Under the pieces are notes generated by a model. The model was not told the DNA's origin. It was given only the letters and a program-made list of their open reading frames with translations, and did no database searches. DNA of 64,000 bases, taken from the NCBI GenBank assembly GCA_963782585.1, contig CAWAKL010000009.1:9533-73532 (forward strand), written 5' to 3'. Position 1 is the stretch's first letter. Each line of letters opens with the position of its first letter. A program made the translations under genes and the position numbers. Positions 8,932 through 56,175 of the stretch are shown here, piece by piece. Source of the stretch: an uncultured Acidobacteriota bacterium (GTDB taxonomy: Bacteria; Acidobacteriota; Thermoanaerobaculia; UBA5066; Gp7-AA6).

Positions 8932-9029
8932 GGTCGGCAGATCTTACATTCGGAACGGTCGCGAATCGGGGCGCAACATGCGCGTAGTGAGCAGCATCAC
9001 AACGCGCCCGCTCGAGCGGCGGAAGCGCC

Positions 9030-9064
9030 GAGGCGGCGGCCTCGTGCCGCCGCCTCCGTTTTTT
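9030..9064. terminator. GC-rich hairpin (11-bp perfect stem) followed by T6 on the plus strand; lies 14-40 nt past the stop of the minus-strand DoxX-like gene
   Basis: gaggcggcggc (9030-9040), loop ctcgt, gccgccgcctc (9046-9056), then cgtttttt. The U-tract orientation is plus while the adjacent gene end is minus. Confidence 0.5.
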
Positions 9065-9069
9065 CGAGC

Positions 9070-9468
9070 CTAAGCGCGTGCCGGAGTCGCGACCCTCACC
9101 CGGGCGTGGACCTCGGCGAGACGCGCGAGGGCGAGCGCGCCGAGCGCCAACCCGAGGTCGCGGAGAGCGACGTCGAGGTATCCGCCCACGAGCAGGAGGT
9201 TGATGATGATCCCGACGAGCCAGGCCGAGACCACGTATCCCCCGATCCGCGGGTTGACCGCGACGAGCAGCCCGGCGACGATCTCGATCGCGCCGACGAT
9301 CATCATGAACGTGTGGGGCTGCATGCCGAGCGCGTTGGGCACCGCCGGAGCCAGGTACTTGTCCCAGTTGGTCAGAAGCTGGAGGAACTTGTCGAGTCCG
9401 GCGATGATCGGCGCCACCGTGAATCCGAGTCGCAGGATCTGAAAGGCCTGATGCGATCCGTTGTCCAT
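9070..9468 (-). CDS. DoxX-like small membrane protein
   Basis: ATG at 9468 is preceded by GGAGGAG. MDNGSHQAFQILRLGFTVAPIIAGLDKFLQLLTNWDKYLAP...IVGAIEIVAGLLVAV. The upstream part of track ORF 9070..9618 is not protein-like. Confidence 0.7.
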   Translation of the reverse strand: MDNGSHQAFQILRLGFTVAPIIAGLDKFLQLLTNWDKYLAPAVPNALGMQPHTFMMIVGAIEIVAGLLVAVNPRIGGYVVSAWLVGIIINLLLVGGYLDVALRDLGLALGALALARLAEVHARVRVATPARA

Positions 9469-9685
9469 CGAGACTCCTCCTCGGGGGGCCAAAAAAGCAA
9501 GAAGGATGCCGTTTGCGGGCATCCCACCTTCGGCCGGGGTGGCCCCGAAACCGCCCCGCCTGCCCAGACAGAGTGAAACGCGGGCGGCGGGTGACACCTT
9601 CGGAGCCCCCGGCGCCACGGGATCCTCCCGATCAGGAATGCGCGCGGCATCCCGGGCCGTTTATGCTCCTCGCAGAGGAGGATCG

Positions 9686-10012
9686 ATGAAAAAGCTCGCC
9701 GTGGCCGCTGCCCTGTTCGTGCTTCCCCTGGCGTTGTCCGCCGCCGAGCTCCATGGCACGGTCAGCGAGGGCGGCAAGACGGTCGCGGCGGGAGTCGGCC
9801 TCAAGCTCGACTGCGGAGGCACGACGGCGTCCGCGTCCACCGATCAGTTCGGCGGATACAGCCTCAAGATCGCGGCCTCCGGCCAGTGCAAGATGACGAT
9901 CGACTACAAGGGAGCGAGCGCTTCGCTCACCGTGGCCGTTTTCGAGAAGCCCAGCCGCTACGACCTCGAGGTCCGGCAGGAGGCCGGCAAACTCACGCTC
10001 GCGCGGAAATAG
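9686..10012 (+). CDS. Small secreted protein with carboxypeptidase-regulatory-like beta-sandwich
   Basis: ATG at 9686 follows GAGGAGG. Signal peptide MKKLAVAAALFVLPLALSAAE, then LHGTVSEGGKTVAAGVGLKLDCGG...DQFGGYSLKI. Confidence 0.7.
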   Translation: MKKLAVAAALFVLPLALSAAELHGTVSEGGKTVAAGVGLKLDCGGTTASASTDQFGGYSLKIAASGQCKMTIDYKGASASLTVAVFEKPSRYDLEVRQEAGKLTLARK

Positions 10013-27046: not shown

Positions 27047-28240
27047 GTGGCGACTCGTCGCGCTCTCTCGCGCCGCACGCGGCCGTTCCAGGAGTCGGTG
27101 ATCCGCGAGATGACGCGCCTTCACGCCGAAGTCGGCGGCGTCAACCTCGCGCAGGGGCTTCCCGACTTCGATCCGCCGGAAGCGTTACTGGCCGCACTCG
27201 CCCGCGCCGCCGCGCGGCCCGAGAGCCACCAGTACGGATTCACCTGGGGCCTGCCGGCGTTCCGCGCCGCGGTGGCGGAAAAGACGTTCCGGGTCAACGG
27301 CATCCGCGCGGATCCGGAGACGGAGGTCACGATCACGTGCGGCGTCTCCGAGGCCGTCGCGGCGGCGGTCCTCGCGCTGACCGAGCCGGGCGACGAGGCG
27401 CTCATCCTCGAGCCGTGGTACGAGAACTACGTGCCCGCCTGCGCCCTGGCCGGCGTCACGCCGCGGTTCGTGCGGCTCTCCGAGCCCGACTTCCGCCTCG
27501 ACGCCGACGCGCTCGCCCGCGCCGTCACGCGCAAGACGCGCCTGATCTTCGTCAACACGCCGGGCAACCCGTCCGGACGCGTCTTTTCGCGCGAGGAGCT
27601 CTCCGCCATCGCCGCGGTCTGCCAGCGGCACGGCCTCGTGGCCGTCACGGACGAGATCTACGAGCACATCTGGTTCGATCCGCACCGGCACGTCAGCCTC
27701 GGATCGCTGCCCGGCATGGGGGATCGCACCGTTACCGTGTCCGGTCTCGGCAAGACGTACGCGGTGACCGGCTGGCGCATCGGCTGGGCCGTGGCGGCAA
27801 AGCCGCTTTCCGCGCTCGTGCGCAAGGTCCACGACTATCTGACGATCTGCGCGCCCACGCTCTTCCAGGAGGCGGGGCTCGCCGCCCTGGCGCTGCCCGA
27901 CGCCTACTACGTCGAGCTGCGCCGAGCGTATGCGGACCGCAGGGAGATCCTGCTGACCGCCCTCGGGAAAGCGGGCCTCGCGTTTGCTCCTCCCGAGGGC
28001 GCCTACTACGTCATGGCCGACGTGCGGGGGCTCGGCTGGAGAAACGATGTTGCCTTCGTCGATTTCCTTGCCCGCAAGGTCGGCGTCACCGCCGTTCCCG
28101 GCTCGAGCTTCTACGCCCGCGGCGGGGGAAAGACGAAGGTCCGCCTCAACTTCGCGAAGAAAGAGGCGACGCTCCGTCAGGCGGCTCGCCGGCTGGCCGC
28201 GTCGGATCTGCGGGCGCCGCGCGGACGCCGCTCACCGTAG
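27047..28240 (+). CDS. Class I/II PLP-dependent aminotransferase (MetC-independent methionine/kynurenine aminotransferase-like)
   Basis: 397 aa with NLAQGLPDF, FVNTPGNPSGRVFSREEL and VSGLGKTYAVTGWRIGW (PLP-binding Lys). Confidence 0.9.
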   Translation: MATRRALSRRTRPFQESVIREMTRLHAEVGGVNLAQGLPDFDPPEALLAALARAAARPESHQYGFTWGLPAFRAAVAEKTFRVNGIRADPETEVTITCGVSEAVAAAVLALTEPGDEALILEPWYENYVPACALAGVTPRFVRLSEPDFRLDADALARAVTRKTRLIFVNTPGNPSGRVFSREELSAIAAVCQRHGLVAVTDEIYEHIWFDPHRHVSLGSLPGMGDRTVTVSGLGKTYAVTGWRIGWAVAAKPLSALVRKVHDYLTICAPTLFQEAGLAALALPDAYYVELRRAYADRREILLTALGKAGLAFAPPEGAYYVMADVRGLGWRNDVAFVDFLARKVGVTAVPGSSFYARGGGKTKVRLNFAKKEATLRQAARRLAASDLRAPRGRRSP

Positions 28241-30817
28241 CCCCTCCACCAGATAGAGCGCCGAGGCGATGCCCCAGGCGCCGTAGACGTAGCCCTGACC
28301 ATCGGGCGTGAGGCGCACGGAGAATCTCGTGAGGGACTCGTCGATCGGGATCACCTTCCAGGGCCGCCTCTCGGACGTCTCGACATCGTAGAGCTCGACT
28401 TTGATCCCGCGGTTCACGTGCGAGTAGACGTACAGCGAGCGCGAGTCGGCGCTCCACTGCGCGGGACGTTCCTTTGGAGACGAGAGTCCCGGGAGCTCGC
28501 GCGGCTCGCCGGAGCCGTCGAGGGAGAACACGACCAGCTTGCCCGCTCGAACCCCGACCGCGCGCCGGCCGTCGCGAGAAATCGGGCTCAGCCACTGCTG
28601 GAAGGAAACACCGGGCGGGCCGACCGGCCGCGGCTCTCCGCCGGCCGCGTCGACGATGTAGATGCGGTTCGGCTGCCCGGCGGCGCTCGCCTCGAACGCG
28701 ATCCGGGAGCCGTCCGGCGTAAAGGCTCCCGTGGCGACGTCGAGCCCTTCGAAACCCAGGGCTCTCGCCTGACCGACGCCCGTCGGAACGACGAACAGCT
28801 TTCGCGTCCCGCCCTCCTCTCGCCTGGCCAGCGCCCACTTCTTGTCGTTTGAAAGCGCGATCGCCTCGCCCTCCGCAATCCTCACGGCCGGCGCGCCGTC
28901 GGTCGTTCGAAGGTAGATCTCGGGATGATCTCCCGCTCCTTCCCCATCCTCGGTGATGAGGACCATGGTGCCGTCCGTCGAGAGATCTGCCGGTCGCGAG
29001 CTGTCCAGCCAGGCCAGATCGACTTCGGATTCCTGGCCGGGGACGAGGCCGCGCAGGACACGGGTGATCGTGTGGTGCGCGAGAAGCGCCCGCCCGTCTT
29101 TTGAAACGTCGTAGAGCTCGAGGCTGCCCGGAATCCGTACGAGCTGGCGGAGCTGCCCGGACCGGCGGAGCGCCCACAACGACTCCGTCCCTCTGGTCCG
29201 AGAACCGGTAAACCAGAGCTCGCGGCCGTCGGCGGCCCAGCACGGTGCGCCCTCCGCCGTCTTCCAGCCGGCAGAAAGGACCTCCTCACGCTTGCCGAGG
29301 CGGTCGACGACGGAGAGCCTGCCCTCTCCACCCTCGACCTTCCAGAAGGCAATCTCGCGCCCGTCCGGGGAGAAGCGCGGGCCGAAGGTCTGACCGGGGA
29401 CGAGCATCTTCCCGACCGGGAACTCGAGTTGTCGCTTGCCCTCGAGTTGGCGCACGACGGCGAGCTCGCTTCCGCTCGTCGGGTCCCAGTCCGCGGATCC
29501 CCAGATTACGTCCTCGACGAGGGGCCGCGGAGCGCCGCCGCCAATCGGAACGACAGCGAGCGTGCCGACGGCGCCGACTTTCCCTTCCGCCCCCCAGATC
29601 GCAAGATCGCCGGACTTCGAGATGGACAGGATGTCTCCCGAGAAAGTCGAAGGGCTTGGACTGCACGCTTTCCGGACGGGTCAGGAACAGGTGCGTTCGG
29701 AGTCGTTCCGGAGTCGTGAACGCCGTAGACAACTTCTCCGCTCGGCGCGAAGCGCGCGTTCCCGAGGCTCGCCGCGCGAAAGCTCAGGCGGCGGAACGAA
29801 GGCGCGGCCGCGACTCGCGACCCGAAGGCTTTCGCGACGAGCCACCCCGCGAGGCCGGCGCCAACGGCCAGAGCGAGACGCCGCGCGACCCAGCCGGACA
29901 CGCGTACGCCTCCGGGCCGGCGAGACCAGGAGCGTCTCGCCGCCGGAAGTCGCTTCCGAAAGGTGGTCGCGAAGGCCCGACAGATCCCGCGCGAGGTCCC
30001 GCGTCGAGGCGTAACGCTCCTCGCGGTCCTTGGCCAGGCAGCGCTCGAGGACCCAGCGGACGGGCAGCGGCAGATCCGGGCGAAGCCGGCTCGCCGGCTC
30101 GGGCTCCTCGCGAATGATCGCCGACATGGTCTCGGCCGCCGTCTTCCGCTGGAAGGGTTGGCGGCCCGTGAGCATCTCGTAGAGCAGGGACCCGAGAGAG
30201 AACTGATCGGATCGGTAGTCGACCGGCTCGCCCGACGCCTGCTCCGGCGACATGTAGCCGACCGTGCCCATGACGGTGCCGGGGCGCGTATGCGGCTGGG
30301 CGGCGGTCGGCATCGCGGAGTCGCCGCTCGCGCCGGTCTCCATCAGCTTCGCGAGGCCGAAGTCGAGGATCTTCACGAAACCGTCGCGGGAGACCATCAC
30401 GTTTTCCGGCTTGAGGTCCCGGTGCACGATCCCGGCGTCGTGCGCCTTCGCGAGTCCTTCCGAGACCTGCGCGGCCACGTTGAGGACCTTTTTCACGGGC
30501 AACGGACCGGACACCGAGAGCTCGCGCAGGGTCTTGCCGTCGACGAGCTCCATGGCCACGAACGTGGTCTCTCCGTCGCGGCCGATCTCGTGGATCGTGA
30601 CGATGTTGGGATGGTTGAGCGCCGAGGCGGCACGGGCCTCCCCCTCGAAACGAGAAATCCGCTCACGATCTGCAGAGAGCGCTTCGGGAAGGACCTTCAG
30701 CGCGACTTCGCGGCCGAGGCGCGTATCGCGTGCCCGGTAGACCTCTCCCATTCCGCCGGCCCCGAGAGGGCCGAGCACTTCGAAGCCCCCGAGTCGGCTA
30801 CCGGCCGATATCGTCAT
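28232..30817 (-). pseudogene. Ser/Thr protein kinase - TM - PD40/TolB-like beta-propeller protein, interrupted by about three frameshifts between 29640 and 29960
   Basis: The kinase domain is intact in 29681..30817 (GAGGMGEVYRARD, HRDLKPENVM, DFGLAK, GTVGYMSPEQ). The TM plus FRRLSF...ARFAPSGEVVYG lies in frame 29506..29901. THLFLTRPESVQSKPFDF lies in a third frame. SGDILSISKSGDLAIWG... through the propeller lies in the 28232..29455 frame. An intact paralog is at 56176..58875. Confidence 0.7.
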
Positions 30818-30861
30818 GCCGTCGGAGCCGTGACGCTAATCGGCGCGAACTCTTCGACGGA

Positions 30862-32793
30862 CTAAGGACATGTCGCAAACGCGTCGGTGTCCTGAACCGG
30901 CGCGAACGGGGTTCCCAGGGGATTGCTGTACGGCTTGCTCGCGCCGTTCGAGGTGTCAGTGACCTGGAGAGCCACCTCCACGTTCGTCAGCCCCGCGGCG
31001 AACACCCAGTAACGCTGATTGAGACCGCAGGCGCGGAGCACCTTGATGACGATCTCGATATTGTCCTCGTTGAAGAAATAGAAGTACCCGGCGTCGTCGG
31101 TCAGCTCGGTGCCGATCGCGTTGCCGGTCTGGCCCTGGTTCGTGCGGAACGTCGCTGAAATCGCGAAGCGGTCGTTGTTCAGGCAGAGCGTCGTGGGCGA
31201 AGCTGTGCAGCCGCCCGTGCCCGAGCCCACGGTCACGGTCTTCGTGACCCGGCTTCCGCCGTTGAGGTTTCCGGCATACATGTCGACCGTGTACGTGCCC
31301 GGAGCGTTGTAGGTGTGCGTCGGGTTCCGGCTCCTCGAAACGTTCGACGAGGATGCGGACTCGCCGAAGAACCAGACCCAGCCGGTCGGCGAATTGGTCG
31401 AGGTGTCGGTGAACGTGACCAGTTCACCGGCCGTTGGAGAAGCGCTGACGTTGAAGTTGGCCACCGGAGCCGGCCCGGGCGCCGCCGTGCCGTAATAGAA
31501 CTGCATCGCCTGGATGTCGTCGGCCTGCGGCGTCACCTTCGAAGGGGTGTGCGCCTGCGAATTCATGACGGCCTGTTCCCATTGCGTCGAGGTCGTCTGA
31601 CTGTGGATGCTCTGAAACTGATTGGGATGGTTGAGGCCCAGCACGTGCCCGAGCTCGTGCATGAGAATCTCGGTGAACTCGCTCGTCGGATAGTCGCAGG
31701 TCCAGCGCCGCATGGAGACCCTTCCGGTGGTCGCGGCATAGTAGGGAGTAATGCCCCGATAGTTGTGGGCGCCCCCCTGCGTCTGCGGACCTCCGATGCC
31801 GACGGCACCGCCGCCGTTGCAGTTGTAGGGGGTCGACCACGCCGTGCCGTTGTGCGGGGTGTCCCGGTCGAGCAGGATCTCGACCGCGGCCGGAGTCGTC
31901 GGACCGCTGATGCGAATGTCGGTGCCGGCGATGCCGTGCCATTGGTCCGCGATGTAGTCGGTCAGGCAGGCCTGATCGACGCCGCAGAAGCCGGTGTTCG
32001 AGACCAGGCGGGTCTGCGTGCCGGTCAGCGAGAGGGTGGCGTCGGGTGAGTCGCCGTTGTCCCAGAACCAGCGGAAGAGGCAGTTCTGTCCGCCGCAGTT
32101 TCCGGGCTCCACACCGCCCAGGTTCCCGAACTTCTGACGCACGCCCCGCGTGACCGGCACGAGCTCGCCTCTCGGCCGCGCGTAGGCGACCCGGCCGAGC
32201 TCACGCCCCGTCCGCAGCGCGCGCAGGGCCGCGACGAACGAGTCGCCGTCGCGGGCGGCGACGGACGAGCCGGGCGCCGCGGCGGCCACGATCCGAGTGT
32301 CCTGTTTGGAGAGCCGCAGATCCTCTTCGGCGCCGAAGACCGGCCGCACCGCAAAGCGCCGCCCTTGCTCGTCGGTCGCCAGGTCGAACTTCGAGAGGCC
32401 GAACTCCGAGAGGCCGAATTCCCCGGAGCCGCTCGGAAGCGGGTTGAGCATCAGCAGGACTTCCTGCGACTCTTCGAAGGCCGGCGCACCCGCGACCGCC
32501 CACGCGAAATCACCGACGACGCCTCCCGGAATCACGACATGGAAGGTTTCGCCTATGTCGCCCCGGAACGTCTCGAGCCGGCGGAGCGTGACGACCGTGA
32601 AGGGCAGATCGTCCCCGCCGTCCCGATCCAGGCGAACCGCAATGTCGACGACCTCCGCGTGCACCACGACCTTTGACGTGCGCACGAGGTCCGCGTCGGA
32701 CATGGGAAAGTAGGTGGCGGCACCCAGGGCGAGCGCGTAGAGAGAGCCGATGGCGGCGAGAATGACCCGGCGGGCATCGGAACGAGACGGCAT
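30862..32793 (-). CDS. Secreted zinc metalloprotease (HExxHxxGxxH, metzincin-like) with PKD domain and conserved C-terminal beta domain
   Basis: ATG at 32793 follows GGGAGG. Contains ILMHELGHVLGLNHP. The PKD-like part reads ANFNVSASPTAGELVTFTDTS...HTYNAPGTYTVDMYA. The C-terminal part reads CLNNDRFAISATFRTNQGQTG...YFYFFNEDNIEIVIKVL. Confidence 0.8.
   Translation of the reverse strand: MPSRSDARRVILAAIGSLYALALGAATYFPMSDADLVRTSKVVVHAEVVDIAVRLDRDGGDDLPFTVVTLRRLETFRGDIGETFHVVIPGGVVGDFAWAVAGAPAFEESQEVLLMLNPLPSGSGEFGLSEFGLSKFDLATDEQGRRFAVRPVFGAEEDLRLSKQDTRIVAAAAPGSSVAARDGDSFVAALRALRTGRELGRVAYARPRGELVPVTRGVRQKFGNLGGVEPGNCGGQNCLFRWFWDNGDSPDATLSLTGTQTRLVSNTGFCGVDQACLTDYIADQWHGIAGTDIRISGPTTPAAVEILLDRDTPHNGTAWSTPYNCNGGGAVGIGGPQTQGGAHNYRGITPYYAATTGRVSMRRWTCDYPTSEFTEILMHELGHVLGLNHPNQFQSIHSQTTSTQWEQAVMNSQAHTPSKVTPQADDIQAMQFYYGTAAPGPAPVANFNVSASPTAGELVTFTDTSTNSPTGWVWFFGESASSSNVSRSRNPTHTYNAPGTYTVDMYAGNLNGGSRVTKTVTVGSGTGGCTASPTTLCLNNDRFAISATFRTNQGQTGNAIGTELTDDAGYFYFFNEDNIEIVIKVLRACGLNQRYWVFAAGLTNVEVALQVTDTSNGASKPYSNPLGTPFAPVQDTDAFATCP
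32386..32430. repeat. 15-bp tandem repeat, two good copies plus a degenerate third, in frame inside the metalloprotease gene (GSGEF-GLSEF-GLSKF)
   Basis: gaacttcgagaggcc / gaactccgagaggcc / gaattccccggagcc, read directly from the sequence. Confidence 0.6.
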
Positions 32794-32872
32794 GGAACCT
32801 CCCGTTTGTTCGCGAAGCATACGCCGGACAGGGCCCTGTGGGAAACTCGCAGCGCCCGTGACCAAGCCGCGG

Positions 32873-33334
32873 ATGCCGGCCGCCTACCTCGCGATCATCG
32901 TCTTCAAGTACGCGAAGCTCGCCGCGTTCCTCGTCCTCGGGGTGGCCGCTTTGCGCTACGCGCGCCTGCCGGCCGGGTCGCTCGCGGAGGAGGCGGCCCA
33001 GCTTCTCGGGGCGCATGCGAGGAATCCTCTCGTCCAGAGCCTCGCTTCCGCGCTCTCGGTCCTGACTCAGGGGGAAATCCGGACGATCGGCTCGGCGTCG
33101 ATTCTCCTCGGACTCGTGTTCGGAACCGAAGGGACGCTGCTCGCCCTGCGGGTCTGGTGGGCGCCGTACCTCACCGTCGTCCTGACGGCGCTGGGCCTGC
33201 CGGTCGAGCTTTTCGAAATCGCCCGCCACCCGGCGAGCCTGCAGGATTACCTGTTGTTCGCGGCCAACGTCGCGATCCTCGTCTACCTCTGGCGGCGGAA
33301 GGACGACTTCAGGCCGGCGGCGCGGGAGGCTTGA
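32873..33334 (+). CDS. DUF2127-like small membrane protein
   Basis: ATG at 32873. MPAAYLAIIVFKYAKLAAFLVLGVAALRYARL... has four hydrophobic helices. No obvious SD, so the start is uncertain. Confidence 0.55.
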   Translation: MPAAYLAIIVFKYAKLAAFLVLGVAALRYARLPAGSLAEEAAQLLGAHARNPLVQSLASALSVLTQGEIRTIGSASILLGLVFGTEGTLLALRVWWAPYLTVVLTALGLPVELFEIARHPASLQDYLLFAANVAILVYLWRRKDDFRPAAREA

Positions 33335-33986
33335 CGTCCGGGAAGCGCTTCGAAAGCCAGGCCTCGACTTCCTCGGGGTGGTAGCCGAAGGGGCCGGGCT
33401 CGCCCTTGTAGACGATCGTCCCCGACTCGTCGAGGATGTAGAAGCGCTCGGGCCAGCCGGCGTAGGCGGCGTTCGCCGGGTTCTCGATCGGGTCGACGAG
33501 AAGCGGGAGCTCGTAGCGGAAGCGCTTGACGAAGTCGTTCGCGATCTTCGTGCGCTCGTCGAGCGTCGTCGGCTGCGGGTAGCAGACGTCCTCCTTCTCG
33601 TTCGAGTCCATCTGCCATTCGTCGAGCGGGTGGGCTTCCTTGATGTAGAGCGTCAAAAACTGCGCGTGGCCGCCGTACGTCTTGTGCAGGCCGTGCAGCC
33701 GCTCGACCGAGCGACGGAACGGAGGTCAGGTGAAGCTGCCGAAGACGAGAACGGTCGGCTTGCTGGCGCCGAGCCGCTCGGAGAGTTTGACCGGCGTCTT
33801 CCCGTCCAGCTCGAGCAGCGTCACGTCCGGCGCGCGATCGCCGACTTTGAGCGTTCCCTCCTCGCGCTGGTCGTAGCGGATCATCCCGATCAGGTTGCGC
33901 GGGCCGCCGACCATGTAGGTGAACCCGGCGAGCGCCAGGACGAGCAGACATCCCACCCCGATGAGGAGCTTCTTCCAGAGCTTCAT
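33309..33986 (-). CDS. Membrane-anchored iodothyronine-deiodinase-like thioredoxin-fold protein with in-frame UGA (probable selenocysteine) at 33728-33726
   Basis: Track ORFs 33726..33986 and 33309..33656 share one frame, and the only break is a TGA. The read-through product is MKLWKKLLIGVGCLLVLALAGF...KPTVLVFGSFT-U-PPFRRSVERLHGLHKTYGGHAQFLTLYIKEAHPLDEWQMD... This matches the deiodinase active-site pattern FGSxT-U-PPF ... YIxEAHPxDxW. Confidence 0.8.
33698..33715 (-). promoter_or_regulatory. Candidate bacterial SECIS stem-loop 3' of the in-frame UGA
   Basis: On the mRNA: UGA + 10 nt, then g-u-CGCUC [GGUC] GAGCG-g-c. That is 5 Watson-Crick pairs plus G.U and G-C extensions, with the GGUC tetraloop at +18..+21 after the UGA (33708-33705). 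Confidence 0.6.
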
Positions 33987-33998
33987 GGACCCGGAATC

Positions 33999-35027
33999 TT
34001 AAGGCTTTCCCGCCTTCGGCAGGCGCGCCTTCGGAATCTTGACGAGAACCGTGTAGAGGGGATCCACGATTTCGATCACCGGAGCGACGGCGTTCTGCGA
34101 GACGAACTGGTAGGCGTCGAGCATCGATAGTCCGGTCTTCTCCATGACCCACTGGACCATGTCCTTGAAGGCGATCCGCGCCGCGTCCTCGAGCGGCCGG
34201 GCGGCGCCGAGCGACATGATCCACTCCGCGTTCTCGATCCTGGGCCACGGCGTCTCTTTGCCCTTGATGAGGTCCACCGTGAGCTGCACGTTCATCGCGC
34301 CCTCGACGGCCGTGCCGATGATCTCGCCGTCCCCCTGCGCGTAGTGACCGTCGCCGAAGGAGAGGAGCCCGCCGGGGACGCGTACGCCGAGGTAGACCGT
34401 GTTGCCGGCGCGGACTTCCTGGCAATCCATGTTGCCCCCGAAGTTGTCGGGCACGATGGTCGAGCGCGCCTCGCCGTGCGCCGGCGCTACGCCGAGGCCG
34501 CCGAGAAACGGAGCGAGAGGGACCTCCCAGGTGTGCTTGCCGTCGGTCGACTTCGTCCGGGCCACGTTCTTCGCGCGGTCGACTTCGTACCACCAGACCG
34601 TCTCCGGCAGGTCGGGCTGGAGGATGGCGGTGCGGTCGGTTCCGTTCAGCGCGCCGAAGCCCGGGAAGAGCGACGAGATTCCGTAGTCCCGCGCGGGCTC
34701 GAGTGTCTCGAGGTGGATCGCGAGGGTGTCGCCGGGGACCGCGCCCTCGACGTAGAAGGGGCCGGTCTGGGGGTTCTCGTGTCCCGCGGGCTGAACCTTG
34801 CTCGGGAGCTGCCCCGGCTTCGTGACGGCGCCGTCGTAGCAGTCCTCGGTCCACGTGATGATGCGCGTTCCCGGCGCGATGCGGCGTACGGGCGCATGTC
34901 CTCCGTAGGTGTACTTGAGCTCCTCGTGCTTCGGCACGTACCGGAGAACCGGGCGCTCCTGCGCCGCCGCGGCCGTCGCCATCGCGCCCGCCGCGCAGAG
35001 GATCGTCGCCCTCGCCGTCCATCCCAT
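33999..35027 (-). CDS. Acetamidase/formamidase family amidohydrolase
   Basis: 342 aa. ATG is preceded by AGGAGG. Contains GPFYVEGAVPGDTLAIHL, GGNMDCQEVRAGNTVYLGVRVPGGLLSFGDGHYAQGDGEI. Ends 12 nt upstream of the deiodinase-like gene. Confidence 0.88.
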   Translation of the reverse strand: MGWTARATILCAAGAMATAAAAQERPVLRYVPKHEELKYTYGGHAPVRRIAPGTRIITWTEDCYDGAVTKPGQLPSKVQPAGHENPQTGPFYVEGAVPGDTLAIHLETLEPARDYGISSLFPGFGALNGTDRTAILQPDLPETVWWYEVDRAKNVARTKSTDGKHTWEVPLAPFLGGLGVAPAHGEARSTIVPDNFGGNMDCQEVRAGNTVYLGVRVPGGLLSFGDGHYAQGDGEIIGTAVEGAMNVQLTVDLIKGKETPWPRIENAEWIMSLGAARPLEDAARIAFKDMVQWVMEKTGLSMLDAYQFVSQNAVAPVIEIVDPLYTVLVKIPKARLPKAGKP

Positions 35028-35102: not shown

Positions 35103-37875
35103 ATGCCATCGACCAGTCTGACCCGAGCGATGCGAGCCCTCCTCGCTGCCCTCCTCTTCACGCCGATGGGGCTGCGGGCCGCCGAAACCGGGACGTTTCA
35201 GAAGTCCGTGGCTTCCATCATGGCGAGCCCGGAGAGCTCTGGTCCGAGACTTTCGCCTCCCCGCCTGGCCGCTCCTCGCCGCCACCTGGGCGACCGCCCG
35301 GATTCGCCGCGGACGGCCGGCTTCCCCGGCGGCTCCGAGTCCGCCGCGCCGGGAGCGCCCGCCGCTCCGCAAGCCCTGGGCGTCAACTACCTCGCCGCCA
35401 CGCTCGCCGACACGGACGCGTTTCCCCCGGACACCTCGGGCGCCGCGGGACCGACGCAGTTTCTCGTCGGCCTGAACGGCCGGATCCGGACCTTCGCGAA
35501 AGACACCGGCGTCGCCGACGGCGTGCTGAACGCGAGCATGGACCTTTTCTTCGACTCCGTGCGCAACGGCAATCCGACCGGCGCGCCGCGCGTTCGTTAC
35601 GACCGGCTCTCCTCGCGCTGGATGGTCACGATCGGCAACTTCAACGCCTCGTTCACCAACAACCGGATGCTGCTCGCCGTCTCCGACGCGGCGTCCGCGG
35701 GCGTCATCTCGAACACGACCGTCTGGACGTACTTCTTCTTCCAGCACAACCTCGTGTCGCCGGCTGGCGATACGGACCTCTTCTTCGACTCCCCCTCGCT
35801 CGGGGTCGACGCGAACGCCCTGACGATCGGAGGCAACCTCTTCAACGCGGCCGGCGGGTATCTGGGCACGAGCGTGCACGTCGTCCGCAAGAGCCGCGCC
35901 CTGTCGGGGCCGGGCGGCGACCTCGTGCCATCCGGCGACGTCGTCGCGTTCCGCAACCTGACGACGACACCCGCGGGAGAAGGACCGTACTCCCCCCAGG
36001 GAGTCGACGACCTCCACGACGCGCGCCGCCACCGAGTCGTGGATCGCGGGCGTCGAGAACGCGGGCTTCGGCGCGCTCAGCTTCCGCCGGATCACGTTCG
36101 CCTCGACCGGGGCGTGGCCTCCCTCGGGGATCTCCGCCAATCTGCCCCTGACGGTGCCCGCGACGTCGGTTCCGCTGACCGTGCCCCACCAGGGGAACGT
36201 CTTCGGGGTCGACGGCGAGCTCGACGCCATCGACGACCGCCTCTCCGCCGCGAGCCTGCGCGACGGACAGCTCTGGACCGCGCACAACATCTCGGTGGGC
36301 TCGGGAGGCGTCTCGCCCGGCGACCGGAACGGATCCCGCTGGTACGAGATCGACCTGTCCTCCGGCACTCCCGTGCTCACGCAGTCGGGAACGCTCTTCG
36401 ACACGGCGGTGACGAACCCTCGCTTCTACTGGATCCCCGCGATCGCGGCCTCGGGACAGGGCCACGCCGCGATCGGCACGAGCGCGTCCGGGGCGACCCA
36501 GCGGATCAACGCCGCGACCGCCGGGCGCCTCGCGACCGACGCGCCCGGCACGCTGGGGACCCCGACGCTCTACACGACGACCACGTTCGCCTACAACCCC
36601 GCGGGCGACCCGGGCCCCACGCGCCGCTGGGGCGACTACTCGTTCACGGCCGTCGATCCTTCCGACGACATGACGATGTGGACGATCCAGCAGTACTGCA
36701 ACGCGGCGGACTCCTATGGCGTCCGTGTGGTCGAGATCCTCGCGCCGCCGCCGGCGTCCTTCGGGACGGCCGCACCGAACACCGTGGTTTCGGGACAGCT
36801 TTCGGTCGACGTCGTCATCACCGGAACCTCCTCCGCGGGTTCCGGGTACTTCGATCCGGGAGCGGGCTTCCCCAACCGACTGGCGGCCTCGGTCTCGGGA
36901 GGAGTCACCGTCAACTCCGTGACCTACACGAGCCCGACGTCGGTCACTCTCGACCTCGACACGACCGCCGCGGCCGCCGGCCCCGTCACCGTGACGATCA
37001 CGAACCCCGACGGCCAGTCGGCGACGAGCGCCTCGGGATTTTTGACCATCACGGCCGGATCGGGGCCGGGCGTCAGCGCGATCGCTCCGACGTCGGGCAC
37101 CGCCGCCGGTGGAACGCTCGCGACTCTGACCGGCACAAACTTCGTCGCCGGCGCCTCCGTGACGATCGGCGGCGTGGCGGCGACGGGCGTCCTCGTGACC
37201 TCCTCGACCACCGCGGACCTCACGACGCCGGCTCTCGCCGCGGGCGAGCTCCACGACGTCACGTTGACGAACGCCGACACGCAGAGCGGGACGCTGCTCG
37301 ACGGCTGGTTCGCCGACTTCCTCGACGTCCCGCAAGAAGACATCTTTCACTCCCATGTCGAGAAGCTCATTCGAAACGGCGTGACCGTGGGCTGCGGCGG
37401 CGGAAACTACTGCCGCAACGACTCCGTCACGCGCGCCCAGATGGCGGTCTTCCTGCTGAAGTCCGACCTCGGGTCGGCGTACATCCCGCCGGCGTGCACG
37501 GGCACGGTGTTCCCGGACGTGCCCTGCACGGGCGGGCTGTTCGATCCGTGGATCGAGGACCTCGCCAACCGCGGAATCACGAGCGGCTGCGGAGGCGGCC
37601 TCTACTGCCCGAACGACCCGGTGACGCGGGCACAGATGTCGGTTTTTCTGCTCAAGACGCTCGAGGGATCGGCCTACACGCCGCCGGCCTGCACGGGGAC
37701 GGTGTTCGACGACGTGCCCTGCACGGGAGGGATCTTCGATCCCTGGATCGAGGAACTGGCCGACCGGGGAATCACCGCGGGCTGCAGCGTCGTGCCGCCG
37801 CTCTTCTGCCCCGGAGATTCGAACACGCGCGGCGAGATGGCGGTGTTTTTGGTGCTGACGTTCAGCCTCCCCTAG
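35103..37875 (+). CDS. Large secreted protein: unrecognised N-terminal domain, IPT/TIG-like domains, three C-terminal Cys-rich SLH-like modules; one apparent frameshift near 36015-36030
   Basis: Frame 35103.. is protein-like up to ...EGPYSPQGVDDLHDA. The 36154..37875 frame is open and protein-like from AATESWIAGVENAGFGALSFRRITF... IPT-like part: VSAIAPTSGTAAGGTLATLTGTNFVAGASVTIGG. Modules occupy 37309-37872. Confidence 0.75.
37309..37872 (+). other. Three tandem Cys-rich SLH-like modules (protein-level repeat)
   Basis: The pattern F.DVP....F..(W)IE.L...G(I/V)T.GCGGG.YCP...VTRAQM.VFLLK occurs three times, joined by linkers of the form G.AY.PP.CTG. Confidence 0.7.
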
Positions 37876-38648: not shown

Positions 38649-38870
38649 TACCGAAATCCTCCGTTTCGCGCTTCGGGACGCCCGAACATACCCGAGCCTT
38701 TCGCCAATGTCATCGTGGGCCCTGTGCGCCTGACAACCGACGTCAGGTGACAGGGGTCACCGCCCGCAACGCCTTCCGCCGCCTACTGTTGGCTTCGCCC
38801 GCCGGCTGGCCCGCTCCTTGCGGATTCGCCGAGTCAGACCAACGACCTGTTTCCGGCGGAAGGAGACGCG

Positions 38871-40730
38871 ATGCAGCGAAGAACAATACGTGCGGCGATT
38901 CTCGGGATCGCCGCCGCAGCCACCGCCTTCACGGCGGCCGCGGCGACGGTCTCGAGCCCGTACCGGCCCACGTCCTCCCCGATCTCCGCGGCGAGGCTGG
39001 CGGCTCCCGGCCAGGAGGCCCTGGACCTGGACCGCTCGGCGCTCGCCGCTCTGCGCTCGGCCGAGGGCGAGATCCGCATCCCGGGGTTCCCCGTGGCGCC
39101 CGGAGCGCTCGAGACGCTCGCCGTGAAGCGCTTCGAGGTCGCGACCCCGGACGCGCGCGTCACCGTCTCCGGGCCGGACGGCGAGAAGTCGCTGCCCTTC
39201 CCGTCGATCGCCCACTTCTCCGGCACGATCGAGGGCGAGCCCGGCTCCTCGGTCTACCTCTCGGCCCAGCGCGAAGTTCTCTACGCGTACGTCCGCCGCT
39301 CGGGCGGAGCCACGGTCTACGTCGGTCCGGCGGCGTCGCGTAAGGCCGGAGACTACGTCGCGCGCAGCGACGACTCTCCCGCCAACGAGCTGCCCCTCGA
39401 GCCGTGGGCATGCGCCACTGAGGAGCTGCCGGCTGCGCTCACGGACATGGCGGAGCCCTCCTTCCCCGCGCCGCAGGCGCCCCTCGAGGGACTCCAGCAG
39501 GCGGCCGTGCGGGTCGACACCGACTACGAGATGTATCTGAAGCACGACAACGACGCCGAAGAGGTCGCCGCCTGGGTCGCGACTCTCTACGGCGCCATCA
39601 ACATCGTCTACGAGCGCGACCTCGACCTTCATCTCTCGCTGGCGGAAGTCCACGTCTGGACCGGATCCGGGGACCCTTACGTTTCGACGAACACGCGCAC
39701 GCAGCTCGACGAGGTCGGCGACTGGTGGCACACCAATCGGCCGATGGGCACCTATCCGCGCGCGATCGTGCACTATCTGTCCGGCAAGGGCCCATCGGGC
39801 GGCATCGCGTGGCTCTCGGTCCTCTGTCAGGGAGACTTCAACTCCGGCGGGCACTGGGGCGGCGCTTACGGCGTGACGCAGGTCAACGGCACCTATCCGC
39901 TGGGCAACTGGGACCAGTTCGCGACCGCCCACGAGACCGGCCACAACGCGGGATCGCACCACACGCACTGCTACGTGCCGGCGATCGACCATTGCTACAA
40001 CGGCGAAGGGGGCTGCTACTCGGGGACCGTCCAGAACCCCGGCGCGGGCAACGGCACGATCATGAGCTACTGCCACCTGCTCGGCTGGAGCTACGTCTCG
40101 TTCGAGTTCCACCAGCGCTGCATCGACGAGCAGCTCATGCCGGAGATCAACTCCGCTGCCTGTCTCACGGAGGCCTCGACCTTCCTCGACGTACCACCCT
40201 CGCACCAGTTTTACGAGTTCGTCGAGACGCTGGCCGCGAACGGCGTGACCGGCGGCTGCGCTCCCAACTACTACTGCCCGAACAACCCCGTCACGCGCGC
40301 GCAGATGGCCGTCTTTCTCCTGAAGGCGAAGTACGGAGCCGCGCACGTGCCGCCGGCCGCGACCGGGACGGTCTTCGGGGACGTGTCGGCCGGCGCCTTC
40401 GCCGCGGCCTGGATCGAGGAGCTCGCGAGTCTCGGCGTCACGAGCGGCTGCGGCGGCGGAAACTACTGCCCGAACCAGACCGTCACGCGGAAGCAGATGT
40501 CGACGTTTCTCCTAAAGACGAAGTTCGGCGCTGCCCACGTGCCTCCGGCGCCGGCCGGCATCTTCGCGGACGTCTCCATGCAGGATCCATTCGCGAGCTG
40601 GATCGAGGAGCTCTACGCCGACGAGATCACCGGAGGCTGCCAGCCGAACCCGCTCCGCTACTGCCCGAACGACCCGAACACGCGGGGGCAGATGGCGGTG
40701 TTTCTGGTCAAGGCGTTCGATCTCCAGTAA
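38871..40730 (+). CDS. Secreted reprolysin/ADAM-like (M12B-type) zinc metalloprotease with three C-terminal Cys-rich SLH-like modules
   Basis: 619 aa. ATG is preceded by GGAAGGAG. Signal peptide present. Zinc motif FATAHETGHNAGSHHTH followed by GTIMSYC. Modules occupy 40182-40727. Confidence 0.85.
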   Translation: MQRRTIRAAILGIAAAATAFTAAAATVSSPYRPTSSPISAARLAAPGQEALDLDRSALAALRSAEGEIRIPGFPVAPGALETLAVKRFEVATPDARVTVSGPDGEKSLPFPSIAHFSGTIEGEPGSSVYLSAQREVLYAYVRRSGGATVYVGPAASRKAGDYVARSDDSPANELPLEPWACATEELPAALTDMAEPSFPAPQAPLEGLQQAAVRVDTDYEMYLKHDNDAEEVAAWVATLYGAINIVYERDLDLHLSLAEVHVWTGSGDPYVSTNTRTQLDEVGDWWHTNRPMGTYPRAIVHYLSGKGPSGGIAWLSVLCQGDFNSGGHWGGAYGVTQVNGTYPLGNWDQFATAHETGHNAGSHHTHCYVPAIDHCYNGEGGCYSGTVQNPGAGNGTIMSYCHLLGWSYVSFEFHQRCIDEQLMPEINSAACLTEASTFLDVPPSHQFYEFVETLAANGVTGGCAPNYYCPNNPVTRAQMAVFLLKAKYGAAHVPPAATGTVFGDVSAGAFAAAWIEELASLGVTSGCGGGNYCPNQTVTRKQMSTFLLKTKFGAAHVPPAPAGIFADVSMQDPFASWIEELYADEITGGCQPNPLRYCPNDPNTRGQMAVFLVKAFDLQ

Positions 40731-40802: not shown

Positions 40803-40880
40803 CGTTGCCTACTGCCGGGGGTCTGCCTTTGGTGGTCGGCTCGATCTGCAATAGACCTCTCCCCCAAATTGCTTCCCCAA

Positions 40881-40907
40881 ACGCCGGCTCACGCCGGCGT
40901 TTTTTTT
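40881..40907 (+). terminator. Canonical intrinsic terminator (7-bp stem plus T8)
   Basis: acgccgg-ctcacg-ccggcgt is followed by tttttttt. It lies 53 nt upstream of the next start codon. Confidence 0.65.
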
Positions 40908-40959
40908 CTTGCGGCTCCACCCGGGCCGCGTAGAGAATCCCCGTCCAACCGGAGGACAC

Positions 40960-42807
40960 ATGAGCTCGAGGTTCGCGGCGACCATCGTGGTCGCATGGCT
41001 GGCGGGGTGCGCGGTCGCCGGAGCCGGGGTGCCCAACCTGGTGAGCCCCGTCCGATCATCCATGTTGAAGCGCGCCACTCCCGGGGAAGAATCCGTCGCT
41101 CTCGATCGCGGAAGCCTCGCGTCGCTGCGCCGCCAGGGAAACGAACCCTTCCGCATGTCGGGTTTTCCGACGGGCCCCGGCGTGCGCTCCGATCTCGTCC
41201 TCCGCCGGTTCGACATCGTTTCGCCGGGCGCGCGCATCCGCGTGACCGGAGCAAACGGCGACACCTTCCGGCCGATGCCCGAGGTCGTGCACTTCGAAGG
41301 AACCGTCGCGGGCGAACCCGACTCGCGGGTCTACGTCGCCGTCCTGCCGGACGGTCTCGTGTCCTGGCTTCGCTCCTCCGCGGGAGCGACCTACGTGGGT
41401 CCCGACGAGTCGCGCCGGGGCTACGTGGTGCGCGATGCGTCGCTCGCGACGCGGCCGTCGGACTGGAGCTGTTTCGCCGACGAGCTCGCTCCGGCGCCGC
41501 AGCCCTCCGTGGTTTCAAAGTCGGGTGCGGGGCCCGCCACACCGCAGATCACGGGCTTCCAGAAGGCGAGTCTCATCCTCGAGACCGACCAGGAGCTGCT
41601 CGCCGACTTCTCAGGCGACGCCGACGCGATGTCCGCGTACCTGCTGACGCTCTCGGCCCAGTTCAACCTGATCTACGAGCGCGACCTCTCGTTCCACTTC
41701 ACCGTCACGGAGATCCACGTCTGGACGACGACCGATCCCTGGGACGGGCCGACCACCAACGAGCAACTCCTGCAGATCGGCGACTGGTACCACGCCAATC
41801 GGCCGCTCGACACGTTTCCGCGAGCCGCGGCGTTTCTCATGTCGGGCCGCCCGGTGGCGGGTGGCGTCGCCTATCTGCCGGCCGTCTGCCTCGACGACTT
41901 CCCGGTCGACGGCGGCCACTGGGGCGGTTCGTACGGCGTGACCCAGCTCTACACGGACTGGCCCGCGCAGCAGTGGGACCTCTTCTCGCTGCTCCACGAG
42001 GTCGGGCACATCTGCGGCAGCGCGCACACCCATTGCTACGTCCCGCCCATCGACATGTGCTGGTCCGGCGAGCCCGGCTGCTACAGCGGGCCGGTCTCCG
42101 TGCCGCCCGGTGGAGGCACGATCATGAGCTACTGCTATCTGCAGCCCGGCGGAGACGCGAACGTCAACCTCGTCTTCCATCCGCGGTGCATCAACGAGCA
42201 GCTGCTGCCCTACATCCAGGCGGCGACGTGCACGACCGCGGTCGCAACCTTCCCCGACGTGCCGGTCTCGAACCCGTTCTTCCACTACGTCCAGACGATC
42301 TTCCAGCTCGGCATCACCAGCGGCTGCGCCGGCGGCAACTACTGCCCCGCAAGTCCCGTCACGCGCGCGCAGATGGCGGTGTTTCTGCTGAAGGCGAAGG
42401 AAGGCGCGGCCTACGTTCCGCCCGCGTGCCCCGGCGGGTTCAACGACGTCCCCTGCGAGAACAACCCGTTCGCCCCGTGGATCTACGAGCTGGCGGCGCG
42501 CGGGATCACGAGCGGCTGCGGCAGCGGCAACTACTGTCCGGACAATCCCGTCAATCGCCGGCAGATGGCGCCGTTTCTCCTGAAGACCCTCTATGGGTCT
42601 TCGCACGTCCCGACGACGTGCACGGGCGTCTTCTCCGACGTGCCCTGCGCCGCCGGCGTCGGGTTCGACGATTTCATCGAGGAGCTCTACTCGCTCGGGA
42701 TCACCGGAGGCTGCGCCACGGCTCCGCTGCGCTACTGTCCCGAGAACCCGAACACGCGCGCGCAGATGGCGGTGTTCCTGGTCAAGACGTTTGGCCTAGT
42801 CTGGTAG
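40960..42807 (+). CDS. Paralogous secreted reprolysin-like zinc metalloprotease with three C-terminal Cys-rich SLH-like modules
   Basis: ATG at 40960 follows GGAGGA. MSSRFAATIVVAWLAGCAVAGAG..., zinc motif FSLLHEVGHICGSAHTH followed by GTIMSYC. Collinear with 38871..40730. Modules occupy 42250-42804. Confidence 0.85.
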   Translation: MSSRFAATIVVAWLAGCAVAGAGVPNLVSPVRSSMLKRATPGEESVALDRGSLASLRRQGNEPFRMSGFPTGPGVRSDLVLRRFDIVSPGARIRVTGANGDTFRPMPEVVHFEGTVAGEPDSRVYVAVLPDGLVSWLRSSAGATYVGPDESRRGYVVRDASLATRPSDWSCFADELAPAPQPSVVSKSGAGPATPQITGFQKASLILETDQELLADFSGDADAMSAYLLTLSAQFNLIYERDLSFHFTVTEIHVWTTTDPWDGPTTNEQLLQIGDWYHANRPLDTFPRAAAFLMSGRPVAGGVAYLPAVCLDDFPVDGGHWGGSYGVTQLYTDWPAQQWDLFSLLHEVGHICGSAHTHCYVPPIDMCWSGEPGCYSGPVSVPPGGGTIMSYCYLQPGGDANVNLVFHPRCINEQLLPYIQAATCTTAVATFPDVPVSNPFFHYVQTIFQLGITSGCAGGNYCPASPVTRAQMAVFLLKAKEGAAYVPPACPGGFNDVPCENNPFAPWIYELAARGITSGCGSGNYCPDNPVNRRQMAPFLLKTLYGSSHVPTTCTGVFSDVPCAAGVGFDDFIEELYSLGITGGCATAPLRYCPENPNTRAQMAVFLVKTFGLVW

Positions 42808-54487: not shown

Positions 54488-56171
54488 AAAAGCTTCTCGC
54501 GCTCTCGCTCGGTCTCTGCCTCGGCGTCGCCCTGCTCGGGCTCGCCCCCTCGGAGGAGCCCTACGACCTGCTCTTTTCGGGAGGCCGCGTCGTGGACGGC
54601 AGCGGCGCGCCCTGGTTCGCCGCGGACGTGGGTGTGCGCGGGGGCAAGATCGTGGCGGTCGGGGCTCTCGCCGGACAGCCGGCGAAGCGCACGATCGACG
54701 CGACCGGCCTCCTCGTCGTGCCGGGCTTCATCGACCTGCTCGGCCAGTCCGAGTACAACGTTCTCGTCGACAAGCGCGCGGCCTCGAAGATCACGCAGGG
54801 CATCACGACCGAGGTCACGGGCGAGGGCGCTTCGATCGCGCCGCTCAACGACGCGATGCTGGCCGAGGCGAAGGACGTCTACGCGCGATACGGCTATGCG
54901 CCGGAGTTCCGGACGATTGGCGGTTTCTACGACACCCTCGAGAAGCGCGGCACGGCCGTCAACCTCGCCACCTTCGTGGGCGCCGGAACGATCCGCGACT
55001 ACGTCATCGGCAAGGCCGATCGCCGCGCGACGCCAGAAGAGCTCTCGAAGATGACCGCTCTCGTCGACCAGGCCATGCGCGAGGGGGCGCTCGGCATCTC
55101 GACGTCACTCCAGTACGTGCCCGACATGTACAACTCGACCGACGAGATCATCGCGATGGCGAAGGTCGCGGCGAAGTACGGCGGCGCCTACTTCACGCAT
55201 CAACGCTCCGAGGCCAACGCCATCGACGCTTCGCTCGACGAGGTCTTCCGGATCGCGAAGGAGACGCCGATCCGCAGCCAGATCTGGCACCTGAAGACGG
55301 CCTACAAGCCCAACTGGGGCAAGATGCCCGCGGTCCTCGCGAAGATCCAGGCCGCGCGGGACTCGGGCATCGACGTGACGGCCAACCAGTACCCCTGGAC
55401 CGCGGGCTCCAACGGGCTCGACGCCTGCCTGCCTCCGTGGATCCGCGAGGGCGGACGGGAGGCGCTGCTCAAGCGCCTCGCCGACCCGAAGCTGCGCGAG
55501 CGGGCCAAGAAGGAGATGAACGAGGAAACGAGTCAGTGGTCGAACCAGTATCTCGGCGCCGGCGGCCCCGACCGGGTCCTCATCGCCTCGGTTCTGAACC
55601 CGAAGCTCAAGTCCTACGAGGGCAAGACCGTTTCACAGATGGCGGCCGAGGAGAAGAAAGACCCGCGCGACGCGCTGATCGATCTCGTCATCGCCGACCG
55701 GGCGAACGTCGCCTGCATCATCTTCATGATGGACGAGGCGGACGTGAAGGCCGGGCTCGCGAGCCCGCTCGTCGCCTTCTGCACCGACTCGCCCGCCGGG
55801 GCGACCGACGGGATCTTCTCGGAAGAGAAATCGCACCCGCGCGGCTGGGCATCCTCCGCGCGCATCCTCGGCAAGTACGTGCGCGACGAGAAGGTCCTCC
55901 GCCTCGAAGAGGCCATCCGCAAGATGACCTCCTTCCCGGCGGAGTCGGCCGGCATCCAGGGACGCGGCCTCTCAAGGTGGGATTCGCCGCGGACGTCGTG
56001 ACGGTCGACATGGCGAAGGTCAAGGACCTCGCGACCTACGAGGAGCCGCGCGTGTACAGCGCGGGGTTCCCCTACGTCGCTGTCAATGGGGTCCTCGTCG
56101 TAGACGGCGGAAGGATCACGGGCGCCGCGCCCGGAAAGGGGCTGCGCGGACCGGGGTATCGAGCTCCGTGA
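54484..56171 (+). CDS. D-aminoacylase family amidohydrolase (second copy); apparent 1-nt deletion near 55965-55975
   Basis: MKKLLALSLGLCLGVALLG...LLFSGGRVVDGSGAPWFAADVGVRGGKIVAVG...PGFIDLLGQSE... runs to ...FPAESAGIQGRGL in the 53869..56001 frame. LKVGFAADVVTVDMAKVKDLATYEEP...VAVNGVLVVDGGRITG then continues in the 55437..56171 frame. Confidence 0.8.
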
Positions 56172-56175
56172 GTCC

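Follow-up and report, generated by a model that had tools for sequence, protein, structure and literature searches.

A probable deiodinase-like selenoprotein with an in-frame UGA at its catalytic position in an uncultured acidobacterium

A 64,000-nucleotide (nt) stretch of DNA from an uncultured Acidobacteriota bacterium of the class Thermoanaerobaculia (GenBank assembly GCA_963782585.1, contig CAWAKL010000009.1, positions 9,533 to 73,532; the whole stretch is called the window here) was found to carry a deiodinase-like coding sequence at 33309..33986 on the minus strand that is broken by a single in-frame TGA. The locus is best read as one gene of 225 codons plus a stop, in which the UGA at codon 87 is recoded as selenocysteine (Sec) through a selenocysteine insertion sequence (SECIS); we place the probability of this reading at about 0.9. 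Judged by sequence comparison, the match to the deiodinase family and the conservation of the TGA are well beyond chance. Because the codon for its catalytic Sec is an in-frame UGA, standard gene callers cut the gene in two.

Re-reading of the window letters reproduced the arrangement from which the original prediction started, in which two minus-strand open reading frames (ORFs), 33726..33986 and 33309..33656, lie in one common frame and are separated only by the TGA at 33728-33726. Translation begins at an ATG (33986-33984) and ends at a second TGA (33311-33309), and the read-through product has the sequence ...KPTVLVFGSFT-[UGA]-PPFRRSVERLHGLHKTYGGHAQFLTLYIKEAHPLDEW... around the interruption, with PPFRRSVERL directly after the UGA and FLTLYIKEAHPLDEW further downstream. 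The codon-position GC contents (positions 1/2/3) are alike in the two halves, 0.64/0.43/0.90 against 0.65/0.42/0.93.

Searches with profile hidden Markov models (HMMs) placed the product firmly in the deiodinase family. With Cys written at the UGA, it scored 123.2 bits (E=1.3e-35, cut-off 27) against PF00837 (T4_deiodinase), with residues 43-214 matching profile positions 70-236 of 237, and the UGA, at residue 87, lying inside the match. When the halves were scored alone, the downstream half reached 76.9 bits and the upstream 86 residues gave no score. The family signature that had been claimed at the UGA was recovered, as FGSFT-U-PPF at residues 82-90 and as YIKEAHPLDEW at residues 114-124 (33615..33647, minus strand), the latter corresponding to Tyr197, Glu200, His202 and Trp207 of Dio3 in columns that are invariant in the protein alignment. 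A profile built from the window protein and its homologues matched mouse Dio3 (4tr3, E=9e-34) and Dio2 (9h48, E=4e-33), and these two groups were the only strong matches among solved structures. The fold was examined by proxy, using the AlphaFold 2 model of P0005, a Cys-containing homologue that is 57% identical (predicted local distance difference test score, 84). The top Foldseek matches of this model were again 4tr3 and 9h48, with template modelling (TM) scores of 0.79-0.81 and root-mean-square deviations of 2.3-2.8 Å, and the next matches, ResA/TlpA-type thioredoxins and 1-Cys peroxiredoxins, were six orders of magnitude weaker. The model thus predicts a thioredoxin fold with a deiodinase-specific insertion that is superimposable on the Dio structures. 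Weak Pfam matches to AhpC-TSA and Redoxin were also obtained for the window protein.

The family is large, with 3040 representatives at 50% identity reaching E<=1e-10. The active site reads C-[PG]-P-F in most full-length members; some members are truncated or have 'W' instead, which, on the database sequences, suggests further Sec forms; among the 150 matches listed, 8 further members carry 'W' at the catalytic column and may be additional mis-translated Sec forms in other lineages. The product scored 194.4 bits against the NCBIfam model NF038285 (deiodinase_rel), compared with a cut-off of 250, and matched only profile positions 177-338 of 347, so that by profile score the window protein lies outside this equivalog.

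A scan of GTDB, using one genome per species, recovered 559 related loci, of which the best 80 were analysed, giving 81 sequences with the window. Nearly all of these 80 are labelled Thermoanaerobaculia or Acidobacteriota metagenome-assembled genomes (MAGs), and their products are 62-86% identical to the window protein at the amino-acid level. TGA occupies the catalytic column in all 80, with protein conservation on either side, and the tblastn matches mostly begin at query residues 1-7 and end at about 211-225. It had been reasoned that the selenoprotein proposal would fall if close homologues stopped at the UGA; the sequence beyond it was instead found to be conserved as protein. Mean entropies at codon positions 1/2/3 across the 81 sequences were 0.50/0.36/0.86 upstream of the TGA and 0.53/0.41/0.92 downstream of it, and the third positions, being the most variable in both parts, indicate that both are under coding selection in one frame. 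A base-calling error at the TGA is irrelevant to this result, because 80 other genomes keep the codon.

Homologues outside this clade supply the complementary evidence. The closest proteins in a collection of 5.8 billion (70-86% identity) are C-terminal fragments of about 125 residues that start just past the UGA, as expected because gene callers yield such pieces from a UGA-split gene. Full-length homologues of about 50% identity have FGSFT-C-PPF (P0001, P0003, P0004, P0006, P0008, P0013, P0017 and P0018) or FGGFT-C-PPF (P0005), and the catalytic codon was confirmed in the DNA as TGC for P0004 and P0005. The catalytic column therefore holds Sec/UGA throughout the close clade and Cys in its distant full-length relatives. 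Two features of the related loci were noted in passing. One MAG, MFD02199.bin.2.111, holds two deiodinase-like Sec genes on two contigs (L046 and L054), which could be a paralogue pair or the product of a mixed bin. The label of one TGA-bearing relative (L074) is not Acidobacteriota but Polyangiaceae (Myxococcota), and could stem from horizontal transfer or mis-binning.

A SECIS-type hairpin was expected past the UGA, and comparative analysis located one. The 48 nt that follow the UGA align without gaps across the relatives, and RNAalifold identified a consensus hairpin with a stem of 5-6 base pairs (bp), the core of which, CGCUC-GGUC-GAGCG, lies at 33700..33713 on the minus strand, or +16 to +29 relative to the U of the UGA, with the GGUC loop at 33708-33705 (+21 to +24). 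Scored on the specified structure (pairs 15-30 to 20-25), the alignment has 95% of its cells in pairs. Three pairs have changed on both sides: four sequences have G-C in place of U-A, one has G-C in place of C-G, and pair 15-30 shows an exchange between G-C and C-G. U-G wobbles at pair 19-26 are found in 10 of the 81 sequences. None of 500 shuffles equalled the observed values on four of five measures and 2/500 did so on the fifth, and the signal collapsed when the register was slid. A hairpin with a GGCU loop, which single-sequence folding had first suggested, was discarded when the comparative alignment identified the conserved element as CGCUC-GGUC-GAGCG.

The hairpin overlies the codons for R-S-V-E-R, and codon choice within it is strongly constrained. 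Arg +5 is CGC in 79/81 sequences (48% elsewhere in these genes), Ser +6 is TCG in 76/76 (34% elsewhere), Val +7 is GTC in 81/81 (68% elsewhere), and Glu +8 is GAG in 66/66 (77% elsewhere), whereas the flanking four-fold sites, in codons +1, +2, +4 and +9, vary with entropies of 1.0-1.6 bits. The frozen synonymous sites within the hairpin thus speak against its being a mere imitation produced by amino-acid conservation. In the window itself, the minimum free energy fold of the 48 nt past the UGA (-17.0 kcal/mol) is an interrupted stem of 12 bp that contains the conserved hairpin and would extend the element to 33691..33722 (minus strand) through the pairs G14-C31, U15-G30 and C12-G33 and a lower stem, CCGU/ACGG; pair 15-30 is the sole extension pair counted across the family (56/78 paired), and the lower stem comes from the window fold alone. 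A pattern scan of the window for a TGA followed by a GGU-loop hairpin returned two matches, the present site and a plus-strand one at 46346. The latter was rejected as a second recoded TGA, its in-frame translation not being coding-like, which leaves the selenoprotein site as the only match in a coding context.

In the proposed mechanism, a ribosome reaching the UGA at 33728-33726 would meet the hairpin 16-29 nt downstream, whose GGUC loop would recruit SelB-GTP-Sec-tRNA(Sec), and Sec would be inserted in place of termination. The second TGA, at 33309..33311, has no such hairpin behind it and would end translation as an ordinary terminator, a role that agrees with the sequence and with the use of TGA in the window and in the orthologues.

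Several observations weigh against recoding as Sec. No SelA, SelB or SelD domain was found by a Pfam scan among those ORFs of the 64-kb window that are supported by third-position GC content, and ARAGORN and Rfam searches of the window returned no tRNA and no match, respectively. When E. coli SelA, SelB and SelD were used as tblastn queries, neither the window nor the 80 related loci (1.3 Mb) gave a match, and ARAGORN found no tRNA-Sec in 60 of the related loci; selA, selB, selD and the gene for tRNA-Sec are assumed to be encoded elsewhere in the genome. The hairpin is also short. Single-sequence folding showed the region to be no more stable than shuffles (z = 0.18), and a rival fold competes with the hairpin when 60 nt are considered (pair probability about 0.11). 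In addition, the Cys form P0005, from a sister group (contig L083), retains the whole hairpin sequence, CGCTCGGTCGAGCG, together with its TGC codon, and the hairpin alone is therefore no proof of decoding. To judge from its sequence, P0005 looks like a recent Sec-to-Cys change with a fossil SECIS; at the same site P0004, of the Cys clade, reads RRNTSD and has no hairpin. Finally, no experimental study of any bacterial member of the family was found in the literature searched, and it is from sequence and models that we infer what is said below about the substrate, about the topology and about a redox cycle involving Cys135. On the other side, Sec use has been documented for some Acidobacteria (PMC1794560), and the selenoprotein reading as a whole was supported by the HMM, homologue, downstream-conservation and hairpin analyses.

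The alternative that survives best is one in which the UGA is decoded by a SECIS/SelB-like route as Cys, by a selC*-type tRNA(Cys) with a UCA anticodon, or as a mixture of Sec and Cys that depends on selenium supply. Anaerobic bacteria with such tRNAs and a second copy of SelB are on record, and Acidobacteria have unusual 'allo-tRNAs' that resemble tRNA-Sec (PMC5389517); Cys is, moreover, functionally tolerated at the catalytic position in related clades. The reported distribution of selC* nevertheless covers Firmicutes, Thermodesulfobacteria, Nitrospirae and Proteobacteria and not Acidobacteria (PMC5389517). TGC is a single mutation away from TGA, yet the TGA and the hairpin have been kept in 80/80 loci, and this persistence speaks for an advantage of Sec under selection; decoding as Cys is considered quite improbable.

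Decoding of the UGA without any Sec machinery, whether by genome-wide reassignment to Trp or Gly or by readthrough with a near-cognate or suppressor tRNA, is less probable still. Reassignment is contradicted by the use of TGA as a stop: it ends more ORFs in the window than any other stop codon (20/39, the selenoprotein gene included) and terminates 57/81 orthologues, so that, on codon usage, UGA does not appear to be generally reassigned in this genome. The database entry for one homologue (P0010, from metagenome contig L084) does render the catalytic residue as Trp, but this 'W' stems from the source translation, and the DNA reads TGA. Although suppressor-like allo-tRNAs exist in Acidobacteria (PMC5389517), SelB-free readthrough would need no conserved hairpin, and Trp or Gly at the nucleophile position, where homologues have Cys, would be inactive.

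The remaining possibility, that the TGA is a genuine stop in a pseudogene, a base-calling error, or the boundary between two small genes (an 86-residue membrane peptide and a 115-residue fragment), has hardly any probability left and, by the comparative data, appears already refuted. It could draw on the two frameshifts in a nearby kinase gene (28232-30835), a sign of defects in the assembly or in the genome itself, and on the C-terminal fragment output by standard callers. Against it stand the identical TGA in 80 independent genomes, with coding-type conservation on either side, and the domain architecture, which makes two separate genes as implausible as had been argued at the outset: both the PF00837 domain and the deiodinase fold run across the TGA, the TGA coincides exactly with the catalytic Sec/Cys position, and a fragment starting at 33656 would contain neither the catalytic residue nor the first half of the thioredoxin fold.

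Two other ORF pairs in the window were considered as read-through candidates and rejected. The pair 24102/25080 consists of two separate genes with a non-coding gap between them. The pair 28232/29681 belongs to a broken gene for a Ser/Thr protein kinase with a PD40 beta-propeller (28232-30835, minus strand). Comparison with an intact orthologue of 940 residues in a related locus (L001) divided this gene into three pieces in frames -1, -2 and -1, with frameshifts near 29.9 kb and 29.7 kb, and the TGA at 29683-29681 falls in the out-of-frame stretch. The gene is a pseudogene or reflects assembly indel errors, and is not a second case of UGA recoding. An intact paralogue of the kinase is located at 56104-58875 on the plus strand.

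With the UGA read as Sec, the active site of the window protein can be compared with that of Dio3. Residue equivalences were taken from the HMM alignment to 4tr3 and residue roles from the published work on Dio3 (PMC11592359). Eight positions are conserved: Ser167 (Ser84 in the window protein), Thr169 (Thr86), Sec170 (Sec87), Tyr197 (Tyr114), Glu200 (Glu117), His202 (His119), Trp207 (Trp124) and Glu259 (Glu180). Four are replaced: Cys168 (Phe85), His219 (Pro139), Cys239 (Leu160) and Arg275 (Pro197). Arg275 is the proposed clamp for the substrate carboxylate, and His219 the proposed proton relay (PMC11592359). The substrate is not expected to be thyroid hormone, because Arg275, His219 and Cys239 are all replaced, and deiodination of thyroid hormone by the window protein is accordingly unlikely on these alignments; the replacements count against that substrate and not against membership of the family.

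The sole cysteine in the catalytic domain, Cys135 of the motif 'VCY' (33582..33584, minus strand), is a candidate resolving thiol. It is present in 81/81 sequences of the Sec clade, each of which has exactly one Cys past the Sec, and is replaced by Val in the Cys clade. In the reaction envisaged, the selenolate of Sec87 would attack an electrophilic substrate, either a peroxide or a halogenated aromatic compound, the oxidised selenium would be resolved by Cys135 as a selenenyl-sulfide, and external thiols would then reduce the Sec87-Cys135 bond. The protein is predicted to begin with a signal anchor or transmembrane helix, formed by 21 hydrophobic residues (7-27; 33906..33968, minus strand) that follow Lys2, Lys5 and Lys6. 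This agrees with the N-terminal anchor noted initially and with a helix at residues 2-25 in the P0005 model. By the positive-inside rule, the catalytic domain would be placed outside the cytoplasm, in the periplasm. Anchoring as a lipoprotein through Cys13 was rejected; the lipobox is poor, and Cys13 is not conserved in the homologues. Both the peroxiredoxin- or deiodinase-like redox cycle and this topology are put forward tentatively, at somewhat worse than even odds.

In 2005, Zhang, Fomenko and Gladyshev gave the first account of bacterial deiodinase-like selenoproteins, along with Cys homologues and SECIS elements of the bacterial type, from the Sargasso Sea metagenome (PMC1088965), and the 2022 and 2026 reviews of the prokaryotic selenoproteome list the PF00837 family with the motif UxxC and no known function (PMC9312934, PMC13188914). 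The window protein shares with these published forms the PF00837 domain, a UGA-encoded catalytic Sec, the existence of Cys homologues, a small G-containing apical loop just past the UGA, and a function that is presumed to be redox. In place of UxxC, however, it has U-P-P-F, with no Cys at +3 and a partner Cys 48 residues downstream. According to the published descriptions, the known form is one of marine plankton, whereas the present clade comprises Thermoanaerobaculia (Acidobacteriota) represented by soil-type MAGs; no paper tying the PF00837 family to Acidobacteria or Thermoanaerobaculia was found in the literature.

The likeness to the vertebrate enzymes Dio1-3 extends over the whole catalytic domain (about 30-33% identity), with the same fold in the proxy model (TM score about 0.8), and includes the S-x-T-U-P-P-F motif, the equivalents of Y197, E200, H202, W207 and E259, the N-terminal hydrophobic anchor and the Sec nucleophile. 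The vertebrate SECIS, in contrast, is an element of the 3′ untranslated region, whereas the window gene has a bacterial hairpin within the ORF; the predicted topology of the window protein may be periplasmic, and thyroid hormones are not expected in the host organism. The proteins described by NF038285 (347 positions) have a homologous catalytic domain, but their first ~175 positions have no counterpart here. Among bacterial SECIS elements, that of E. coli fdhF (NC_000913.3) also forms a hairpin directly 3′ of the UGA inside the ORF and has the identical GGUC tetraloop, at +22 to +25, only 1 nt away from its position in the window. The conserved upper stem of the window element is shorter than that of fdhF (5-6 bp) and has no evident bulged U, and its binding by SelB is putative. 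Periplasmic thiol-disulfide oxidoreductases (TlpA/ResA type) and 1-Cys peroxiredoxins share the N-terminal anchor and the thioredoxin fold (Foldseek E ~1e-8 with the P0005 model); the window protein differs from them in having no CxxC motif and in having the deiodinase-specific insertion and the EAH motif, and identity to them is 13-21%.

The gene is thus a mis-annotated member of a family whose bacterial proteins have been known since 2005, and does not represent a new category of system. What sets it apart, as far as sequences can tell, is the combination of a vertebrate-like T-U-P-P-F motif, one invariant distal Cys, an fdhF-like GGUC SECIS and class-wide conservation. The mis-annotation is systematic, in that close relatives are public almost only as fragments of about 125 residues called 'hypothetical protein' or 'type I thyroxine 5′-deiodinase', and once the recoded UGA is recognised, a complete membrane-anchored enzyme is recovered. 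The same recognition marks the organism and, apparently, much of Thermoanaerobaculia (80/80 of the closest species genomes) as users of selenocysteine. The scientific gain is modest: a SECIS-supported clade from soil and sediment is added to the family, Sec87 and Cys135 are offered as a specific candidate pair, and the missing Dio3 clamp residue can steer the search for substrates. A more speculative proposal, which we consider improbable, is that the Thermoanaerobaculia proteins form a distinct and uniformly Sec-dependent subfamily (T-U-P-P-F with an invariant 'VCY' Cys) of extracytoplasmic reductive dehalogenases or deiodinases that act on natural halogenated phenolics of soil and sediment, together with the neighbouring secreted amidase-family protein. 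If so, the deiodinase chemistry of animals would have its functional counterpart in these bacterial proteins and might even have evolved from them.

This neighbour is an acetamidase/formamidase-family gene with a signal-peptide-like N-terminus (33999..35027, minus strand; Pfam FmdA_AmdA, 92 bits), located directly upstream. Its TAA stop (34001-33999) is separated by 12 nt from the ATG of the selenoprotein gene, and the two are probably co-transcribed. The original prediction gave this spacing correctly but overstated the identity of the neighbour in calling it a formamidase; the NCBIfam formamidase model gave 61 bits against a cut-off of 500, and the gene is only a distant member of the family. 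Of the 80 loci, 56 have an FmdA_AmdA-family homologue within 8 kb of the deiodinase-like gene, and in 15 of these it stands directly upstream, no more than about 30 nt from the start; its position varies between directly upstream, about 1 kb upstream, and downstream on the same strand. On the other side of the selenoprotein gene, a convergent gene for a DUF2127 membrane protein (32750..33334, plus strand; Pfam DUF2127, 72 bits) overlaps it by 26 nt at the 3′ end. A DUF2127 homologue occurs in 63/80 loci, mostly in the same convergent place directly downstream. All these genomes come from a single class, and the synteny is therefore weak support for a functional link.

In L001, an ORF of about 320 residues (9015-9980, plus strand; MARPLRLEHAGALWHVTSRGNER...HYHLLLETP...) lies between the amidase-family and deiodinase-like genes, and we take it to resemble a REP-associated/IS200-like tyrosine transposase. 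A similar gap of about 1 kb is present in about 20 other loci, at the place where the window has its 12-nt spacer. A cluster of genes for secreted or cell-surface proteins surrounds the selenoprotein locus in the window (35962-37875, 38751-40730 and 40855-42807 on the plus strand and 30862-32865 on the minus strand). It encodes one TIG/IPT protein with S-layer-homology (SLH) domains, two reprolysin-like (M12) metalloproteases with SLH domains and one matrixin-like (M10) protease with a PKD domain; SLH domains are unusual for Acidobacteriota.

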